From an uncultured Gammaproteobacteria bacterium (GTDB lineage Bacteria > Pseudomonadota > Gammaproteobacteria > UBA9214): DNA of 64,000 nt. Each line of letters begins with the position of its first letter. The stretch's first letter is position 1. The stretch spans positions 160,001-224,000 of the forward strand of contig CAVYZN010000032.1 in NCBI GenBank assembly GCA_963773065.1, in the 5' to 3' direction. Below the pieces are notes generated by a model. The model was given only the letters and a program-made list of their open reading frames with translations. It searched no databases and was not told where the DNA came from. Both the position numbers and the translations under genes were made by a program. Of the stretch, positions 1,207-32,712 are shown one piece after another.

Positions 1207-1300
1207 TTCGATCACCATAGACCAAGCCGTTGAGGTGTGTCCAGTGAGGCGTGAACCGATGCCCCGATGAAGTGCGTTTGTTGGTTATATGCATCATCAA

Positions 1301-1396
1301 GCGCCCCATAATGGCGCATCGTTTATTATGGTAGTTCTCGGCATTACTGCAAGCAACTGTTTATTAATTAATTATTATTGTGGCACGCTGATTGCT
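1301..1396 (+). promoter_or_regulatory. Sigma-54 promoter with upstream NtrC-like site for torF-glnK-amtB
   Basis: TGGCAC-N5-TTGC at 1381-1395; GCGCCCCATAATGGCGCA at 1301-1318 resembles the NtrC consensus TGCACC-N5-TGGTGCA; AT-rich spacer between them. Confidence 0.8.
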
Positions 1397-1511
1397 TTTG
1401 TCGGCTTGTGAGCCAAAACAGCAACAACGCCTTGCGTTCTGTTCACGGCGGCAAGGGTTACTTTCTTTCGAAGAACGCTTTTCAGCTAACACCTTAACAG
1501 GAGTCTATGAC

Positions 1512-2221
1512 ATGAACACCTTTACCAAGACCTTGACCGCGGCGGCGCTGGCGACTGTTTCCGGCTTCGTCGCGGCGGCGGATGACATCGCCGCCAACGT
1601 CTCGATGGCGAGCGACTACATCTGGCGTGGCGTTTCCCAGACCAATGAGAAGCCGGCCATTCCAGGGGGTTTCGATTACAGCCACGACTTCGATCCGATC
1701 ACCTGGTATGTCGGTACCTGGGGCAGCAACATCGATCCGACCTTCTTCGGCGGCATCCACAGCCCCACCATGGAACTGGACCTCTATACCGGCATCTCCG
1801 GCAAGAAGGACGACTTCAGCTATAACGCGGGCTGGTTGCGTTACTTCTATCCGGGCGGTTCTTCCAATGCCACGACCGAATGGAAGGTCGGCGGTGGCTG
1901 GAAGTGGTTCGGGGTGGAGTACTACTACAGCAAGGACTGGTTCGGTACGAGCGACAACTCGAGCCGCATCGAAGGCTCATTCAACTATGCGCTGCCTTAT
2001 GAGATCGCCCTGTCGGCCGTCGTTGGCAACAACTACGGCGACGGCACCGAGGATTTCTTCACCGACAGCTACGTCGACTGGAAGCTGGGGGTGAGCAAGA
2101 AGTGGCTGGGCGTCAACTGGGGCCTGGCCTATACCGACACCAACATTGATAAGGAGGACTGCGGCAACTCGGATCTGTGCGACGCCCACTATGTGGCTTC
2201 CCTGAGCAAGGAAGTTTCTAA
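1512..2221 (+). CDS. TorF family putative porin (TIGR02001-like)
   Basis: Signal peptide, SDYIWRGVSQT...GGFDY and ELDLYTG motifs; probable true end KEF* near 2221 masked by an indel. Confidence 0.85.
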
Positions 2222-2614
<393 letters not shown>

Positions 2615-2645
2615 TCTCAATCCATCAGCAGAAGAGGAGAGCATT

Positions 2646-3976
2646 ATGTTTAAGCAGATCAAGGGGCGTTCAGGCGCCCTGATGGTGGGATTACTCGGCC
2701 TGCTGCCATCCCTGGCGATGGCCGAGAACGCCCCCCCACCTTGAATTCCGGTGATACCGCCTGGATGCTGACGTCAACCGCACTGGTGCTGTTCATGACC
2801 ATTCCGGGCCTGGCGCTGTTCTATGGCGGCATGGTGCGTGCCAAAAACGTGCTGGCGACACTGATGCAGTGCTTCGCCGTCACCTGTCTGGTCACGGTGC
2901 TGTGGACGCTGTATGGCTACAGCATGGCCTTTGACACGACGGGTATGGAGAAGGGCGTCACGAACCTCTATTCGTTCGTCGGCAGCCTCAACAAGGCATT
3001 TCTGAGCGGCGTAGGTCTGGATAGCCTGACCCTCACCATTCCTGAAACGGTGTTTATGTGCTTCCAGATGACCTTCGCGATCATCACCCCGGCGCTGATC
3101 GTGGGCGCCTTCGCGGAGCGCATGAAGTTCTCGGCGCTGCTGTGGTTCATGGGCATCTGGTTCACCGTCATCTACGCGCCGATTGCGCACATGGTGTGGA
3201 GCGGCGACGGCGGCCTGCTGTGGGATCTGGGCGTGCTGGACTTCGCCGGCGGCACCGTGGTGCACATCAATGCCGGTATCGCGGGGCTGATGGCATGCCT
3301 GGTGATGGGCAAACGCAAGGGTTACCCCACCACCGCCATGCCGCCGCACAACCTGGGCTATACCGTGATGGGCGCCTCGATGCTGTGGGTCGGCTGGTTT
3401 GGCTTCAATGCGGGCAGCGCGGTGGCCGCAAACGGCACCGCGGGCATGGCCATGGCCGTGACGCAGATCGCCACGGCAACAGCGGCGCTGGCGTGGATGT
3501 TCGCGGAGTGGATCTCGCATGGCAAGCCCAGCGTGCTGGGTATCGCTTCCGGCGCGGTCGCCGGTCTGGTCGCGATCACGCCGGCCTCGGGTTTCGTCGG
3601 TCCGATGGGCGCGCTGGTGATCGGCGTTGCCGCCGGCGTCGGCTGCTACCTCGCCGCCGCCAAGCTCAAGCGCGCACTCGGCTACGATGACTCGCTCGAC
3701 GTGTTCGGCGTGCACGCGGTCGGGGGTATCATCGGCGCGCTGCTCACCGGCGTATTCGCCGCGGCGAGCTTGGGCGGCTCCAAGGCCGATCTCGACATCG
3801 GCGGCCAGGTCTGGATACAGACACTGGGCGTGCTGTTCACCCTGGTGTACTCGGGCATCGGCAGCTTCATCATCCTGAAGATCGTCGATGTGATCATCGG
3901 TCTGCGGGTCACGGAGGAACAGGAAACCGAAGGTCTGGATGTCAGCCAGCACGACGAGCGAGGTTATATCCTGTAA
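2646..3976 (+). CDS. amtB: Ammonium transporter (indel in poly-C near 2735)
   Basis: GDTAWMLTSTALVLFMT, DFAGGTVVHINAG and DDSLDVFGVH motifs. Confidence 0.96.
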
Positions 3977-3994
3977 CACCGTATCACCAACGGG

Positions 3995-4026
3995 AAAACG
4001 ACGGGCGCTACGGCGCCCGTTTTTTT
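3995..4026 (+). terminator. Rho-independent terminator after amtB
   Basis: ACGGGCGC-TACG-GCGCCCGT hairpin followed by a T tract. Confidence 0.8.
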
Positions 4027-4063
4027 GCATCCATGGATGGATGCAGGTCGCGGTAGGCAGGGA

Positions 4064-4282
4064 CGATGCATAGGGATATGCAAGTGTCGCGGGAGGCAGG
4101 ATGCCGGGAGCGGCGGCCGGGAGCGACCCTTCAACGACGCGATGTGGGTTGTAAGTGTCGGGAGCGATGAGCCGTAAGGGAAGGCCGCTCCGGACATCCT
4201 CGGTAACTGCTCCTGCGTTACCCTACCTCCTGCATCCCTGCAGTCGTGTCCTCACGCGGCACTCGTACATCCATGTACATCG
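4064..4282. repeat. Dispersed MITE-like repeat (inverted pair of units), homologous to 48392-48492
   Basis: Reverse complement of 4197-4282 aligns with 48392-48492 (CGATGTACA..GCAGGGATGCAGGAGGTAG..CGCAGGAGCAGTTACCGAGGA); a related unit starts at 4064 on +. Confidence 0.75.
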
Positions 4283-4432
4283 TAGGCACGGTCGTTCTCG
4301 CACTTCCGTGTGCTTCGCGACACTCGGACCTTCTGTCCATCGCCGGGCACCCTATATAGGAAATGAGAGTTTGAATCACTATACTGCGTTGTGCATCTCC
4401 CAAGACCCAGCGGTAACCACAAGGACACAACG

Positions 4433-6555
4433 ATGGGAAAAGTGTTGAAAGTCATCTTAGGCTTGGTAGCGGTTGCCATCGGATTAATCATCGTGCTGGC
4501 AGTAGCGCTGCCATTCATCATCGATCCGAATGATTACAAGGACCAGATCGCGGCGGCGGTGAAAGACAAGACCGGTCGCACCCTGACCATAGACGGTGAT
4601 ATCAACCTGTCCGTGTTCCCCTGGCTGGGGCTGGATATCGGTCCCACGCGCTTGAGCAACGCGGAGGGCTTCGGCGAGCAGCCTATGGCCAGCATGGAAA
4701 AGGTGCAGGTGCGCGTAAAATTGCTTCCGCTGCTGCACAAGCAGATGGAGATGGACACACTCAGGCTGTCCGGCCTGCGCCTGCAGCTTGGCAAGGATGT
4801 CAGCGGCCGCAGCAACTGGGATGATCTGCGGGGTGAACCCGGCGAGCAAACGCAAACCGGCGCGCAGCAGCCGGGCGAAGCGGCGGGCAGTCCTCTCGCC
4901 GGTCTGGCAATCGGCGGTGTGGAGGTGGCCGATGCCGAAGTGCTGTGGGATGACCGCGCCGCCGGGACGCGTTACGAGATCAACGACCTGGCATTTACCA
5001 CCGGCGCCATCGATCCCGGTGAACCGTTCGATATCGATCTGCATTTCCGCATGAACGCCAGGGAGCCCGCCATTGCCGGGGAGATAACACTGCGCGGCAA
5101 GATCCTGGTGGCCACATCATTGCGTGCTATCAACATGGACGGCGTTGATCTGAATGTCGACCTGCAGGGTGAAGGCGCGCCCGGCGGCCGGCTGCGGCTT
5201 TCGCTGGATGACCGATATCGCCGTCGATCTCGATCGGCAAACGCTGCAGATGCCGAAGCTGGCGCTGGAGACGCCGGGGCTCAAAATCACCGGCAATGCC
5301 AGCGGCACCGGGATCAGCGGCGAGGATCCCCGTTTCACCGGCGCGCTGAGTGTGGCGGAATTTGTGCCGCGTGATCTCATCAAGGCGCTGGGCCAGAAGC
5401 CGCCGGTCACCGCGGACAGCACGGTGCTGGGCAAGGCCGGCGCCGCGTTGCAATGGGAGGCCATCGAAGCGCCAAGCGTCAGCCACGTCCCTGCAGTTCC
5501 AGCTCGATGACACGCACGTGAACGGCAAGCTGCGCGTGGACAATTTCGCCAAGCCCGCGATTGACTTCGCCTTGCAGGCCGACCAGTTCGACCTGGATCG
5601 CTACCTGCCGCCGCCCGCCAAAGAGGCGCAGGCGGCCGCCGCCACGCCCGCCGCCACCGCGGCAGGTGGGGCGGGCGCCTTGCCGGTCGAGACCCTGCGC
5701 GGCCTGAACCTGGCCGGCAGCGTGAAAATTGGCAGGCTGAAGGCCTTTAATCTACGCTCCACGGACATCGAGTTCACGCTCAAATCCCAGGACGGCTTGC
5801 TGCGCGTGCACCCGGCCGTCGCCCGGCTGTACCAGGGGCAATACAGCGGGGACATCAGCATGGATGTGCGGGGAACTACCCCGCGTCTTTCCATGAATGA
5901 GCACGTGAAGACCATCCAGGCCGGGCCGTTGCTCAAGGATCTGACCGGCGATGACAAGATGAGCGGCACCGGCACCGTCGATGTCCAACTGGCCGGCAGC
6001 GGGACGACACCGGAGCAACTGCGCCGCACCCTGAATGGCAACGCCGCGTTTTCCTTCACCAACGGCAGCGTCAAGGGGGTGAACATCGCCTCCCTGCTGC
6101 GCAATGCCCAGGCAAAGCTCCAGGGACAGCCGCTGCCCGCGGACAACCAGCCCAATCAGACCGACTTCGCCGAGCTGCGGGGAACCGCGACCGTGACCGA
6201 TGGCGTGGTCAGGAACAACGATCTGTCCGTCAAGTCACCGCTGCTGAGAATCAACGGTGAAGGCCAGGCGAGCCTGCCCGCCGAGACCATTGATTACCTG
6301 TTGACGACCAAGATCGTCGGTTCCCTGAAAGGTCAGGGGGGCAAGGCGCTCGATGAGCTGAAGGGCGTCGCGATCCCGGTGCGCATCGGCGGAACCTTCA
6401 ACAAGCCGACCTACACGCCGGATCTCGCCGCCGCACTCGGCGACGTCGCCACGGAAAAGGCGAAGGAGAAGATCGAAAAGAAGACACAGAAGCTGCTGAA
6501 GGACAGGCTCGGCGATGAATCCACCAAGCAGTTGCTGAAGGGCTTGTTCAAATAG
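4433..6555 (+). CDS. asmA: AsmA family protein (two apparent sequencing frameshifts)
   Basis: N-terminal anchor plus DPNDYKDQIAAAVKDKTGRTLTIDGDINLSVFPWLG; C-terminal TDFAELRGT...NNDL; synteny with mutY. Confidence 0.88.
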
Positions 6556-8628: not shown

Positions 8629-8704
8629 GGCCAGGTAGCTCAGTTGGTAGAGCAGGGGACTGAAAATCCCCGTGTCGGCGGTTCGATTCCGTCCCTGGCC
8701 ACCA
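8629..8704 (+). tRNA. tRNA-Phe (GAA)
   Basis: GGCCAGG acceptor stem, anticodon loop CTGAAAA, GGTTCGATTCC T-arm, 3' ACCA; 76 nt. Confidence 0.98.
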
Positions 8705-27743: not shown

Positions 27744-28406
27744 ATGAAAAGATCAAATCTGGTAGGTACCTTATGCAGTGTAGTGTTAGCTACTGCGACT
27801 GATTGGGCATTGGCAAGTTTCGTAACGTACACGGGAAACTTGTCCGCCGAATCGGCTTGGCAGGCGGCTGCGGGTACTACGGTACTAGAGGACTTCGAGT
27901 CCTATCAAGACGATACACAGATATCGATTTTACCGGCGCTTGGGATTGGTTTTGATCCGTTAGCCGGAGGCGGATTTCCCAATACCTATCTTTTTAGTGA
28001 AGGTCCCCCGCACGGCCCAATGCATTTGGCGAACTTCCCTAACGGGATTAATGACACTAATCGCTGGGATGATGTTGTCCTGCATGTGCTCCCCGGTTAC
28101 GAAATTACCGCACTCGGGTTTTGGAACGGAGATGGTCAAAGCGATACTTTGGTGGCAACAGCTTACGACGCGGCTGACAACATCCTGGGTTCCGTAGGAG
28201 CTTTTAAAGATACCTTTGCGGGTTTCATCTCAGATGTTTCCATACCACGGGTTGTATTTGCTGAAAATACGGGTGATGGATGGAACCATCTGGATGGACT
28301 CCAAACCAACGCTGTAGAAGCTGTGCCAATACCGGCAGCCGTATGGCTGTTCGGTTCCGGACTGCTTGGCTTGCTTGGCATTACCCGGCGCAAGCAGACA
28401 GAGTAA
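27744..28406 (+). CDS. VPLPA-CTERM (PEP-CTERM-like) exosortase substrate
   Basis: Signal peptide; C-terminus AVPIPAAVWLFGSGLLGLLGITRRK. Confidence 0.88.
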   Translation: MKRSNLVGTLCSVVLATATDWALASFVTYTGNLSAESAWQAAAGTTVLEDFESYQDDTQISILPALGIGFDPLAGGGFPNTYLFSEGPPHGPMHLANFPNGINDTNRWDDVVLHVLPGYEITALGFWNGDGQSDTLVATAYDAADNILGSVGAFKDTFAGFISDVSIPRVVFAENTGDGWNHLDGLQTNAVEAVPIPAAVWLFGSGLLGLLGITRRKQTE

Positions 28407-28509
28407 CCATTAATCAGTGTTACAAGCAGCGGCTTCTTCGAAAGCCGTGACTCAGGTGAAAGCATATGAACCTGTAAATTTTTCATATCAAAGCATGGAG
28501 GAGACGAAG

Positions 28510-29813
28510 ATGAATAAAAGTACTGTTACATACCGTATAAAGCGGGCTCTGATTGGCAGTGTAGCATCATTGGTTTTTCTTTCTGTTGCAAATGTAAGCT
28601 GGGCCGATACGTGGACGGGTACGGTTGATGATTTATGGTCAACGAACGGTAACTGGCTGGATGGCAGCGCGCCAACAAGCACGGATTCGGTTACATTTAA
28701 TTCCGGCGATACAGGTGGTACAAATTTCGTCGATACGAATTTCACAATTACCGGCCTTGAATACCTCATCAATGGTACTCACACGACTAACCTCAACAGT
28801 GGAATCACCCTGCAAGTCGATCAATATCTCAGCCTCGGTTTCCGAAAACACCACCAGTAGCGCAGGCACGGCCGATGGCACGCTGGTGTTGGGCGGCAAT
28901 TCGGTGCTGAATGTGGGCACACCGACGGTGCGGGCGGATCTCGAACCTGGGCTGGAACGAGTCGAGCAACGCGGCGAGTGACGCCACGGGCGTGCTCAAT
29001 GCGCTGGACGGCACGGCGAATCTACGGCTCAACGAGTTCAACATCGGGCGTTCGGTGCGCGGGCAGAGCGCCACGGGGACGCTGCTGTGGGATCAGCCGG
29101 GAGCGATCGATGCGGATGTGATCTATCTGAGCCGCGGTGCAGGTGCGGTGGGCACGATTGCGACGCCGGCCGGCGGGACGTTGAAGCTCGGCTCGGCCAG
29201 TGCGCCGGTGGGGTTTCTGCGCCTTGGCTGGAATGACACCGGTTCTGCGGGAGCGGCCAGCGGCACGCTGGATTTGAGCGTGAACAATCCGACCTTCGAG
29301 GCGGTGATCAGCAACGAGCTGAGCCTGGGTCATAACGGCATTCCCACTGGTGTGGGCACGGCCGATGGCACGCTGGTGCTGGGCGGCAATTCGGTGCTGA
29401 ATGTGGGCACACCGACGGTGCGGGCGGATCTGAACCTGGGCTGGAACGAGTCGAGCAACGCGGCGAGTGACGCCACGGGCGTGCTCAATGCGCTGGACGG
29501 CACGGCGAATCTACGGCTCAACGAGTTCAACATCGGGCGTTCGGTGCGCGGGCAGAGTGCGACAGGGACGTTCTCGATGGGCAGTAACGCTAATGTAGAC
29601 GTCAACGTCGTCAATATTGGGACCGGGACTAACGCTACTGGAACAGTTAATCTGACCGGTGGTCTGATGACCGCAAACATCATCAATCTCGATCAAGGAG
29701 CGTTTAATTTTACCGGTGGCCGGTTAGCGGTCAATACCTTCAACGGCACGCTCACTGATAAAGGTGGTACGCTTGCGCCCGGTGTAGCGCCGAACACGAC
29801 CTCGATTGCGGGG
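28510..29813 (+). pseudogene. Secreted beta-repeat (autotransporter-like / probable PEP-CTERM) protein, truncated by group II intron
   Basis: Signal peptide, WTG..WST.GNW, Gly/Thr/Asn-rich repeats, GGTLAPG; frame runs into the intron and no 3' half is found. Confidence 0.7.
28865..29570 (+). repeat. ~215-bp near-identical direct repeat (28865-29080 and 29355-29570)
   Basis: GGCACGGCCGATGGCACGCTGGTG...CGTTCGGTGCGCGGGCAGAG occurs twice, 490 bp apart. Confidence 0.92.
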
Positions 29814-31808
29814 ATGCGACCTGGCAAGGTCGCGTAATCGAGTGGGTGCGAATCCCACCCGGGTAGCCGCTAGCCACGGGCCCGGTATTGAGCCTTGCAG
29901 TCAGCGGGGTAACTTGCTGATTGATGCGTAGGTACGAAAGGAGGCGAGGTGCAAAGGTAACAGGTGATGCTGACCCTGAAGACGTTGAGTCCCGAAAACG
30001 GCATCGTTGGAATCGGCCGATGGGTTCCCGCACCCAGCAGGCAACAGTTCCTGACGCGTGAGAGGCAAGTGTCAGGGAACGCCCCGGGATCTAAGGTCGC
30101 TTCGAGCCTCACAAGGCGATTGCGCGGTAACCAGGGAGATCCGACAGTCGGCGCAGAGGGATCTGCGTACCCTCGGACAAGCCTAGCAAGCGAGGAAGAG
30201 GGCGGTGGCGGTCGGAAGTCGGGGGTGCCCATACGAGCGATGAAGCCCGGTAATGCGGGTGGAGCAAAGGGGCACCGGTTTGAGACAACGGGTAAGGGCA
30301 ACATGGCCCGACACTGAGCGGACTGTGACCATGACAACGAAGTTTATCCGTTTCACCGAGAAGGCGCGTGCGGAACCGCAGTTGCGGTTCAATGCCCTGA
30401 TGGGGCTGCTGTTCGACCCGGAGGGGTTGCACGCCAGCTTCGGGCGTCAAGATGGAAAGAAGGCGCCCGGAGTGGATGGAATCAGGAAAGTGGACTATGC
30501 GGAAGGGCTGGAAAGCCGGCTAACGGAGCTGTCGTGTAGCCTGAGGCAAATGGGCTATCGGCCGCAGCCGGTGCGGCGAGTATACATCCCGAAAGGGAAT
30601 GGCCGTCGTCGTCCGCTGGGCATTCCTTGTTTTGAGGATCGCATTGTGCAGGATCGACTGAGTCTGATTCTGCAGGCGATATGGGAGCCGGAGTTTCAGG
30701 ACTGCTCTTTTGGTTTTCGTCCCGGGCGCAGCGCGCACGATGCGCTGCGTCGAGTGGCGGAGGTCATTACCAACGAGCGCACGCAGTGGGTGGTAGAGGC
30801 CGACATTAAAGGCTTCTTCGATCATGTTTCGCATTCCCACCTGCTACGGTTTCTGGAACACCGCATCGCAGACCCGAACGTTCTGCGAATCCTGAAGCGG
30901 TTTCTCAAGGCAGGGGTAATGGAAGATGGGGTGGTCAACGAGGTGAATGAAGGGACCCCACAAGGTGGGTTGGTATCACCGGCATTGGCTAATATTTACC
31001 TCCATTACGTGCTGGACCTGTGGTTCGAGCGGCGTTACAAGAAGTCCTGTCGTGGTAAAGCCTTTTTGGTGCGCTACTGCGACGACTTCATCGCCTGCTT
31101 TCAGCACGAGGATGAGGCGCATCGCTTTCACCGGGAATTGGGGGAGCGAGTGGCTGCCTTTGACCTGGAAGTCGAGCCCAGCAAGACGGCTGTGCTGCGT
31201 TTCGGTACGCAAGCGAAAAGGGATTGCCATCGGGATGGGCTAGGTCGTCCCCAGACGTTCAGCTTCCTGGGGTTGACCCACTACGTCGGTCGCAGTCGTC
31301 GCGGCCGCTTTGTGGTGGGTCGCAAGACTGAGCGGAAGCGGTTCAATGGCAAACTCAAGCAGTTGAACGAGCGTCTGTGCCGGCTACGGATGGCCGGTGG
31401 CAAGGCCATGATGGACTATGTGCGGCGGCATCTTGAAGGGCACATCCGTTACTATGGGGTGAGTGGCAACTACCGGGCGTTGAGTCGCTACGTCATGGCG
31501 GCGAGCCGCCTACTGTACAAGTGGCTCAACCGGCGTAGTCAACGCCGTTCTATCCCTTGGAAGCGGTTCCGTCCGATATTGCTGGAACGCGTGTTGCCGC
31601 GTATACGCATTGTTCACAACCTCTATCCTAAGCCGATCGGAATGACTCAATCTGGGAGCCGGATGGTGTAACGCACCTTGTCCGGTTCTACGAGGGGTCG
31701 GGGACGTACTGCTGTGTGGACACGCTATTGTGGCACCGCCGGGAAACCAGGCGGAACAGAGAAAACAAACAGTGTCCGGGCATGGCGGGAGGAACCGACC
31801 TACTCACC
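29814..31808 (+). mobile_element. Group II intron (complete), RT/maturase-encoding, extended domain VI
   Basis: 5' ATGCG (GTGCG-like); DV GAGCCGGATGGTGTAACGCACCTTGTCCGGTTC at 31656-31688; DVI basal stem GAGGGGTCGG/CCGACCT[A]CTC with bulged A, ending AC(C). Confidence 0.9.
30331..31671 (+). CDS. ltrA: Group II intron reverse transcriptase/maturase, no endonuclease domain
   Basis: KAPGVDG, RPLGIPCFEDRIVQ, SFGFRPGRSAHDAL, ADIKGFFD, GTPQGGLVSPALANIYLH, RYCDDF, FSFLG, X/thumb domain. Confidence 0.95.
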   Translation: MTTKFIRFTEKARAEPQLRFNALMGLLFDPEGLHASFGRQDGKKAPGVDGIRKVDYAEGLESRLTELSCSLRQMGYRPQPVRRVYIPKGNGRRRPLGIPCFEDRIVQDRLSLILQAIWEPEFQDCSFGFRPGRSAHDALRRVAEVITNERTQWVVEADIKGFFDHVSHSHLLRFLEHRIADPNVLRILKRFLKAGVMEDGVVNEVNEGTPQGGLVSPALANIYLHYVLDLWFERRYKKSCRGKAFLVRYCDDFIACFQHEDEAHRFHRELGERVAAFDLEVEPSKTAVLRFGTQAKRDCHRDGLGRPQTFSFLGLTHYVGRSRRGRFVVGRKTERKRFNGKLKQLNERLCRLRMAGGKAMMDYVRRHLEGHIRYYGVSGNYRALSRYVMAASRLLYKWLNRRSQRRSIPWKRFRPILLERVLPRIRIVHNLYPKPIGMTQSGSRMV

Positions 31809-31866
31809 AAAACCGCACGTCCGGGACTGTGCCGGGAGCTCCGGGTAACCGGAGTCCCTACGGCGG
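31809..31866 (+). mobile_element. 3' remnant (distal DV plus DVI) of a second group II intron
   Basis: AAAACCGCACGTCCGG matches the 3' half of DV with the AC bulge; GCCGGGAGCTCCGG-GTAA-CCGGAGTCCCT[A]CGGC is a DVI hairpin with bulged A. Confidence 0.8.
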
Positions 31867-31944: not shown

Positions 31945-32712
31945 ATGACAAAGCACAAGACCGGAACACGTGAAGAGTGGCTCGCAGCGCGGCTCGAGCT
32001 GCTCAAGGCCGAGAGGGAACTCACGCACCGCAGCGACGAGCTGGCGCGGCGGCGACAGGAACTCCCGTGGGTTCGGATCGACAAGGAGTATCGATTCGAG
32101 ACCGATGAACGCAGCGCCTCGCTGGCAGACCTCTTTAGAGGGCGCTCGCAGCTCCTCATGTACCACTTCATGTTCGGGCCCGACTACACGGCGGGGTGTC
32201 CCTCCTGCTCGGCAATCGCGGACGGTTTCAACGGGTCCGTCGTGCACCTAGCCAACCATGACGTGACGCTCTGTGCGGTGTCGCGGGCGCCACTCGCGAA
32301 GCTTCAGGCGTACAAGCGGCGGATGGGCTGGAGCTTCCCTTGGGCTTCGTCGTTCGGCAGCGACTTCAACCACGACTTCGGTGTGGAGTACACGGAGGCC
32401 GAACAGCGGGCAGGAGTGCTCGATTACAACTTCGCAACGACCGAGTGGCCACCGGTGCCGGTGGACCAGCAGGAAGGGCCGCTCGCAGAGATCCCAGCCA
32501 GCGTCGGTTTGGACTGGGCGACGTACGCGCGCGAGAGGTTTGGCGTGAGCGCGTTCGTGCTCGAGGATGGCGTCGTCTACCACACCTATTCCGCCTATTC
32601 GCGCGGAGTGGACGGCCTCTGGGGCGCGTACCAGTGGCTCAATCGTGCCCCCAAGGGACGCAACGAGACCAACTACTGGTGGCGCCGCCATGACGAGTAC
32701 GACAAGCGCTGA
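31945..32712 (+). CDS. DUF899 thioredoxin-like protein
   Basis: TREEWLAARLELL..RRQELPWV..LFRGRSQLLMYHFMFGP..GCPSCS. Confidence 0.9.
   Translation: MTKHKTGTREEWLAARLELLKAERELTHRSDELARRRQELPWVRIDKEYRFETDERSASLADLFRGRSQLLMYHFMFGPDYTAGCPSCSAIADGFNGSVVHLANHDVTLCAVSRAPLAKLQAYKRRMGWSFPWASSFGSDFNHDFGVEYTEAEQRAGVLDYNFATTEWPPVPVDQQEGPLAEIPASVGLDWATYARERFGVSAFVLEDGVVYHTYSAYSRGVDGLWGAYQWLNRAPKGRNETNYWWRRHDEYDKR

Follow-up and report, generated by a model that had tools for sequence, protein, structure and literature searches.

A group II intron lineage with exon-binding sites apparently tuned to domain V of other group II introns

Group II introns are known to settle in one another. In Thermosynechococcus elongatus they home into other group II introns within domain IV (PMC2882425), the nests of Methanosarcina have been described as a perpetual, harmless homing site (PMC4424553), and the first twintron described, in psbF of Euglena gracilis, has one group II intron inserted in domain V (DV) of another (PMC8393795), and in the twintrons treated in two further papers the inner member lies in domain I or IV (PMC4649490, PMC7049729). 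Among the classes of group II intron, IIE and IIF have a small ribozyme, no endonuclease domain, exon-binding sites 1 and 2 (EBS1 and EBS2) within domain Id, and a 5-nucleotide (nt) DV loop, not a tetraloop; Syntrophomonas and Geobacter are the genera that supplied the IIE and IIF test introns of that study (PMC3753933). The DNA analysed here is a 64,000-nt stretch (hereafter the window) of an uncultured gammaproteobacterium, positions 160,001 to 224,000 of contig CAVYZN010000032.1 (C32:160001-224000) in assembly GCA_963773065.1, which comprises 33 contigs totalling 3.84 Mb and is 90.9% complete with 6.3% contamination. It contains a complete group II intron that encodes its own reverse transcriptase (RT), and comparison with relatives makes it very probable that the lineage to which this intron belongs has EBS1 and EBS2 complementary to the 5′ strand of the DV of other group II introns, homes there and makes twintrons.

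The intron is 1996 nt long and consists of an RF02005-type domain I, an RT/maturase open reading frame (ORF), DV and domain VI (DVI). A second copy, at 4890-6902 of contig C5 of the same assembly, differs from it at two of the 1996 positions (30028-30029, CC versus TT), and the BLAST match between them extends from 29807 to 31819. So small a difference is indirect evidence that the intron may have moved recently. Our set of relatives comprises 160 loci encoding RT relatives, with the first 320 nt aligned where the intron 5′ region matched strongly. Eight elements form what we call the DV group: the window copy, the C5 copy, L005, L085, L086, L087, L088 and L089, the last six with RTs that are 87, 93, 91, 86, 74 and 85% identical, respectively, to that of the window (the RT of L089 is truncated).

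As the first-pass annotation of this DNA had anticipated for close homologues, DV junctions recur in this group. The 5′ strand of a DV (..GAGCCGGATGCGGG and variants) ends six of the seven available 5′ flanks, and the remainder of a DV, A(A/G)(A/T)NC(C/T)GCA.., opens all seven available 3′ flanks and is followed by DVI where the contig allows, which gives DV-like flanks in 13 of 14 cases overall. Of the 73 further family members with an RT identity of 55% or more, none shows such motifs (0/50 5′ flanks and 0/31 3′ flanks). The insertion point lies after the first base of the 5-nt DV loop (G^AAAA or G^AGAA, where ^ marks the site of the intron); the earlier expectation of recurrent GCGGGA^AA junctions with an EBS1 of UCCCGC was right as to a repeated cut within DV, but the exact cut follows GCGGG and EBS1 is CCCGCA, with variants. 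A maximum likelihood tree was built from RT matches of at least 400 amino acids (aa) without stops, 47 of them in-group (at least 55% identity) and eight out-group, L089 being omitted as too short. It has the seven full-length DV members on one side of a branch with a Shimodaira-Hasegawa-like approximate likelihood ratio test (SH-aLRT) value of 88, and the inner six have 100. A single change is enough to account for the DV label on this tree, and a count as low was obtained in 0/500 shuffles.

What guides these elements to DV? Throughout the family, the last six exon bases (intron-binding site 1, IBS1) covary with EBS1: 96.2% of cells are paired across 52 relatives with 27 distinct combinations, against a shuffle mean of 49.5% (0/1000 shuffles at the observed value) and 40-55% when the partner was slid by 1-3 columns. 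These 52 rows are drawn from 57 aligned sequences, L091, L094, L012, L026 and L108 having been excluded (less than 20 nt of exon or no clear start), and since in the MAFFT alignment A1 the exons of the GUGCG and GWUGCG groups were offset from each other by one column, pairs were counted relative to the splice site. The IBS1/EBS1 loop pairs seen are GGGACA/TGTCCC, GGGTCA/TGACCC, CCATTT/AAATGG, GTCTTG/CAAGAC, TCTGCG/CGCAGA and TGCGGG/CCCGCA. It is because the loop covaries with the last six exon bases that we place EBS1 at 30027-30032, and because of this covariation together with the empty sites described below that we regard UGCGGG-CCCGCA as the functional pairing. The first-pass annotation had correctly picked out the 30021-30036 hairpin as the bearer of EBS1, a position that is also that of the terminal loop in the RF02005 domain I model, but its proposed pairing of GCGGGA with UCCCGC has to give way to UGCGGG (29807-29812) with CCCGCA (30027-30032). 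TGCGGG also stands directly 5′ of the introns of the C5 copy, L005, L086, L088 and L089.

EBS2 of IIB-like introns is located in an internal loop upstream of the EBS1 hairpin. Here the EBS2 candidate is paired with exon positions -9 to -12 in 77% of cases (shuffle mean 46%, 0/1000 shuffles; 31-42% when slid), a weaker signal than that of EBS1. The base pairing of exon to EBS that characterizes mobile group II introns is thus found in this family by covariation and by both the shuffle and slid controls. For the 3′ exon the pairing is less telling, in that across the 32 rows for which a 3′ boundary is available its first base is never other than A or G, and many invariant T columns thus "pair" with it as EBS3. 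Within the DV group, changes in the host DV are matched by changes in the guides. In L085 a host GUGGG is met by an EBS1 of CCCACA, and EBS2 is CGGT with a host ACCG in L005 and CGCT with a host GGCG in L085.

An outer intron is present on both sides of the C5 copy and of L005. The C5 host is an ORF-less intron of RF02001 type (42.4 bits), 74-76% identical to two full-length introns on contig C10, while the L005 host is an ORF-less intron of RF02005 type (113.9 bits) which, with the inner intron removed in silico, is 74% identical over ~800 columns to an empty intron on contig C11 and colinear with it through DV. The sequences upstream of L085, L086, L088 and L089 are mutually unlike. The same genome also holds DVs without an insertion. 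The two full-length C10 introns, of RF02001 type, in tandem 2634 nt apart and each with a 448-aa RT/maturase, contain the empty target TGCGGGAGAACCGCACG in an uninterrupted DV, GAGCCGTGTGCGGGAGAACCGCACGCACGGTTC (RF00029, 57.4 bits), and the ORF-less C11 intron has the uninterrupted DV GAACCGGATGCGGGAAAACTGCACGTCCGGGTC (RF00029, 42.3 bits; L004 1485-1557). Host DV loops are GAAAA and GAGAA, both 5 nt long.

Could the association with DV be passive, one ancestral twintron having been inherited or moved as a composite unit? Composite twintron mobility was thought possible for T. elongatus (PMC2882425), yet we consider this explanation highly unlikely for the present lineage: its hosts are unlike in Rfam type and upstream sequence, the inner copies are only 2/1996 nt apart although the C5 host has diverged as far as stated above from the unoccupied C10 introns nearest to it, EBS1 and EBS2 changes compensate host DV variants, and empty homologous sites exist. 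We give almost no credence to a second alternative, in which TGCGGG and A(A/G)AACCGCACG are not target sequence at all but the termini of an element spanning 29807-31819. These are indeed the limits of BLAST identity between the two copies, but in the uninterrupted DVs of C10 and C11 these bases follow one another without a break and form the DV helix and loop, and an intron-free gene paralogue on contig C6 has TTGCGGG. The core idea of the first-pass annotation, that this lineage homes into the DV of other introns, therefore stands on the DV flanks in 13 of 14 cases, the RT clade plus L089, the compensatory changes and the empty sites.

Several observations weigh against DV homing. The group has only eight members, several of them on contigs of 2-3 kb, and its coherent complete twintrons are the C5 copy and L005 only. 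By our reading, the 5′ and 3′ DV halves that flank L086 and L088, both on short metagenome contigs, appear to pair poorly with each other, for which reason the pairs may be chimeras created by assembly. In the genome under study, two DV targets on C10 and one on C11 match but are unoccupied. The EBS1 of the C5 copy, CUUGCA, pairs with its own UGCGGG exon only via two G-U pairs. Lastly, the 5′ flank of the window copy is a coding gene and not DV, and the window is without a complete twintron. As to the C5 copy, the two positions at which it departs from the window copy are adjacent and both fall inside the 6-nt EBS1 (CCCGCA versus CUUGCA), a change that could represent retargeting, relaxed specificity or an assembly variant.

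The window copy deserves separate treatment since, with a coding gene on its 5′ side, it falls short of a twintron. The first-pass annotation had read the 3′ flank as the distal half of another intron's DV. This was borne out, positions 31809-31866 sharing 87% identity across 53 nt with the C11 DV-DVI (the end of the remnant was placed by comparison with L004 1485-1557). On the 5′ side, where the flank ends TTGCGGGG, there is no DV half: up to 29812 the sequence is a gene 82% identical over 911 nt to the C6 paralogue, and the match stops exactly at 29812. The paralogue is intron-free and reads ..GGTTGCGGG^TAGTACGACC, i.e. ..TTGCGGG^TAGTACGACC. Because IBS1 matches at 6/6 positions and IBS2 at 3/4, an ectopic insertion into the gene is credible, and the mixed flank pair most likely arose when one copy in the gene and another in a DV underwent homologous recombination and the interval between them was deleted. 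Deletion of nested copies by homologous recombination has been described (PMC4424553).

We give appreciable weight, though less than an even chance, to a different origin of this arrangement, namely an assembly chimera in which at least three identical copies were present, the 2-kb repeat was collapsed and the 5′ flank in the gene was joined to a 3′ flank in DV. The assembly figures given above resemble those of a metagenome bin, copies that are alike but for 2 nt invite collapse, and L086 and L088, on short metagenome contigs, likewise have mismatched flank pairs. Against this, no contig holds the leftovers to be expected of it: a BLAST search of the whole assembly returned no 3′ remainder of the gene, no 5′ part of the host ending GGATGCGGG and no third copy of the intron, whole or partial. 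Moreover, C32 is 379.5 kb long with the junction ~190 kb from its start, and both junction types are biologically plausible, given the exon matches at the gene site. Among 20 public runs, all stored as DNA contigs, four were compared with the window; in these (X1, X2, X3 and X6) we found nothing over 29502-29804 and no piece spanning the stretch; record 1 of X1 matches from 29807 on and has 84 unmatched bases before that point, and a contig of X2, a marsh metagenome, crosses 31808/31809 to 31819 and then continues into another DV-like 3′ strand. Mixed flank pairs of this kind recur, and they illustrate that an intron present in identical copies may cause deletions or else mislead an assembler.

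The boundaries and integrity of the intron were established from several sides. Subtracting empty from occupied sites leaves an insert that starts G-ATGCGACC and finishes CTCACC, the 5′ ends of relatives are GTGCGG or G-TTGCGG, and the 3′ end ..CTACTC(A/T)CC is conserved among them. The subtraction and the relatives' 5′ ends together put the intron start at G29813, the last G of GCGGGG, so that the boundary first proposed was one base late. Domain I matches the full RF02005 model (1-225) over 29849-30099 with 113.5 bits, above the gathering score of 49. DV-DVI matches RF00029 over 31654-31808 with 32.8 bits, a long insert (~78 nt in the alignment) in the DVI loop keeping it under the gathering score of 40, and the DV triad and 2-nt bulge and the bulged A of DVI are present and are kept in relatives. 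The RT/maturase scores 121.9 bits with Pfam RVT_1 and 340.8 bits with NCBIfam TIGR04416 (cutoff 300) and contains a YCDD motif; relatives align to its residues 1-446, more distant ones, at 47-49% identity, coming from Syntrophomonas and Geobacter. From these features we conclude that the intron is an active-looking, endonuclease-less retroelement of an RF02005-type (IIE/IIF-like) family. A plasmid collection held no record covering 80% or more of the intron, and the best it gave was 68-71% over ~200 nt of RT genes.

The tip of the intron's own DV bears on another question, that of self-insertion. The first-pass annotation was right that this DV (GAGCCGGATGGTGTAACGCACCTTGTCCGGTTC) lacks GCGGGA, but the further suggestion that the tip had been altered to avoid self-targeting was not supported. 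The tip, GGTGTAAC.., with the ORF stop in its loop, is common to relatives that do not target DV. Of 79 DV-region matches listed, those with E<=1.5e-05 nearly all have a GG(T/G/A)(G/A/C)TAA tip, the rest being weak or cut off, and the bearers of this tip include lineages that target GGGACA, CCATTT or GTCTTG. Since lineages with different exons have the same tip, it is ancestral, tied to the ORF stop, and predates DV targeting. That the intron changed its tip as immunity against self-insertion is accordingly very improbable in our view: its own DV, GAUGGUGU^AACG, does have three IBS1 mismatches relative to the targets, GAUGCGGG^ARAA, but the same kind of tip occurs in relatives with other targets and carries the ORF stop. 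Throughout the family the RT ORF extends into DV, with a TAA stop in the DV loop (window 31669-31671).

How might such an intron enter and leave a DV? In the DV target, IBS2, GCCG, overlaps the AGC triad of the host and IBS1, UGCGGG, runs to the first loop base. In the mechanism that we envisage for DV homing, a lariat-RT particle would reverse-splice into DNA at the junction between IBS2-IBS1 and position +1, in the DV pentaloop G^ARAA, and, because there is no endonuclease, synthesis of complementary DNA (cDNA) would be primed by replication-fork strands, as in other endonuclease-less introns. The inner intron would then splice first so that the host DV is rebuilt; as the host DV cannot form until the inner intron leaves, splicing is expected to be sequential. 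Both replication-fork priming in endonuclease-less introns and inner-first splicing of twintrons are described in PMC4424553. More speculatively, U-containing EBS1 variants (CUUGCA on C5 and CUCGCA in L088) may widen the range of targets by wobble pairing.

Group II introns in bacteria are thought to persist by landing where harm is small, and no part of a group II intron is more strongly conserved than DV. Because of that conservation, a DV-tuned lineage would gain a harmless target wherever introns live, and we speculate that the target is attractive in being conserved, repeated and harmless to the cell. Insertion into DV would nevertheless disable the host ribozyme until the inner intron splices out. 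A possible extension, which we put forward only tentatively and judge to be distinctly less probable than its contrary, is that of a hyperparasitic lineage whose guide loops co-evolve with DV and which makes the splicing and mobility of its hosts dependent on the inner intron. The compensatory EBS1 and EBS2 changes and the G-U variants CUUGCA and CUCGCA fit such a lineage. If true, such a lineage would by nature hold rival retroelements in check or hijack them, with a ready-made safe harbour in any genome with IIE/IIF-type introns. The DV group would offer a natural system for the study of competition and dependence among retroelements, of obligate sequential splicing and of the extent to which EBS1 and EBS2 by themselves can specify a structured DNA target.

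Table 1. Features of the intron, its flanks and the unoccupied C10 targets (window coordinates unless a locus is named).
Feature	Position	Strand	Details
Mobile group II intron	29813..31808	+	5′ GAUGCGAC.., 3′ ..CUACUCACC; edges from empty versus occupied sites
IBS2-like CTCG	29801..29804	+	exon -12..-9; pairs 3/4 with EBS2
IBS1 TGCGGG	29807..29812	+	exon -6..-1; pairs 6/6 with EBS1 CCCGCA
EBS2 CGGC	29999..30002	+	internal loop of domain I, 5′ of EBS1 hairpin in RF02005 consensus
EBS1 hairpin TGGGT-TCCCGC-ACCCA	30021..30036	+	EBS1 = 30027-30032 CCCGCA
Intron-encoded RT/maturase	30331..31671	+	446 aa, intact, in domain IV; no endonuclease domain; stop codon in DV loop
Own domain V	31656..31688	+	GAGCCGGATGGTGTAACGCACCTTGTCCGGTTC; AGC triad, 2-nt bulge, 5-nt loop UAACG with TAA stop
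Extended domain VI	31689..31808	+	bulged A at 31802, 7th base from 3′ end; RF00029 alignment
3′-truncated repeat-protein gene, 5′ exon of window copy	28911..29812	+	ORF 28911..29837 enters intron
Host intron remnant	31809..31866	+	DV 3′ half 31809-31827, DVI 31828-31866
Downstream gene, DUF899	31945..32712	+	Pfam 307.3 bits; unrelated
C10 tandem introns	L165 (C10:17500-24000) 1217-3060 and 3851-5694		unoccupied DV targets

Some further observations concern the surroundings of these introns. The product of the truncated gene has no Pfam family and only a weak autotransporter-like NCBIfam match (E 0.00098). In the region of the interrupted gene, three ORFs follow each other in different frames (27744-28406, 28417-28860 and 28911-29837), and the counterpart of this region on C6 (C6:236680-239093, corresponding to window 27744-29837) contains ~489-nt tandem repeats that are ~99% identical. 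The C5 host starts GTGCGTCC, with a perfect hairpin (GTCATTCCCGC TTT CGCGGGAATGA) immediately before it. Just 5′ of the C11 intron stands a different hairpin (CCGGTCCTGCGCAAAAAGCCGCGCAGGCCGG, L004 737-790), of which a 93% identical lone copy is present on contig C2 (L166 905-958); that C2 match was considered as a fragment of a host intron and rejected, being only the hairpin upstream of the C11 intron. The C10 introns adjoin five spaced repeats (L165 6067-6403) that score 33.9-36.5 bits with CRISPR-DR32, below the gathering score of 48. An unrelated tRNA gene lies at 8629-8701 of the window (RF00005, 71.8 bits).

Pieces of the intron body also turn up elsewhere. Contig pieces matching window 29805-31725 with 0-2 differences per 150-850 nt were found in the four runs named above, which represent four studies, of soil, marsh, mangrove and sediment, and the occurrence of near-identical pieces in four studies implies that the element is widespread in near-identical form. 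Many relatives that do not target DV (L032, L036, L028, L031, L107, L140 and L046) are preceded by two or three tandem units of 10-17 nt, each closing with an IBS1-like motif, e.g. ..ACGGGGAC ..ACGGGGGG ..ACGGGGACA^intron. The RF02005-family intron of L110 has as its 5′ flank domain I of another RF02005-family intron (..GGTATTGAGCCTTG^G), and several D1D4 and DV-DVI matches are found at the same locus, which suggests a complex nest in which domain I of a related intron was invaded; a regular-expression scan of L110 returned no EBS1. In L119 two family members stand head to tail (..CTTACTCTCC^GTGCGG), with exon-EBS1 pairing at 1/6 positions.

To which class does the intron belong, and how does it compare with the nested introns already described? 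Membership in group IIC, which has no EBS2, a short EBS1 and insertion downstream of a stem-loop, was considered and rejected: EBS2 is present, EBS1 is 6 nt long and insertion is inside a hairpin loop. The likeness is to the published descriptions of IIE and IIF, with a small ribozyme (655 nt outside the ORF), no endonuclease, both exon-binding sites in domain Id and an own 5-nt DV loop of UAACG. The 5′ end differs, the intron opening with GAUGCG in place of the consensus GUGYG, which is, on the sequences compared, a one-base variant inside the family (relatives have GUGCGG or GUUGCGG).

With the nests of Methanosarcina acetivorans the DV group shares repeated site-specific homing into group II introns and deletion by recombination (PMC4424553). 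They differ in being archaeal, and the available portion of PMC4424553 does not mention targeting of DV. A likeness is also seen with T. elongatus, where TeI3 (F3) is found in TeI4 (F1) as identical inner copies within diverged outer introns and the target is recognized almost entirely by base pairing, but insertion there is into domain IV, between the first and the second ATG of the ORF, and the inner intron is closely related to the outer (PMC2882425). In the DV group, by comparison, the site is the DV loop in the catalytic core, the hosts represent at least two domain-I types of Rfam and an RT is encoded by the inner intron itself. The Methanosarcina sites reportedly lie in the ORFs of related introns, to go by the title of the work by Dai and Zimmerly of 2003.

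Insertion into DV as such is not unprecedented, contrary to what the first-pass annotation had left room for, in view of the Euglena psbF twintron (PMC8393795). That twintron is one case only, fixed in a protein gene of an organelle and made of degenerate, ORF-less introns, whereas here an RT-encoding lineage has EBS1 and EBS2 that track DV across many hosts. In the full-text literature, coverage of which is incomplete for subscription journals and makes such an absence weak evidence, we found no RT-encoding bacterial lineage with EBS1 and EBS2 tuned to DV. Homing of this kind is apparently an undescribed twist on a known habit of group II introns, that of inserting into one another.

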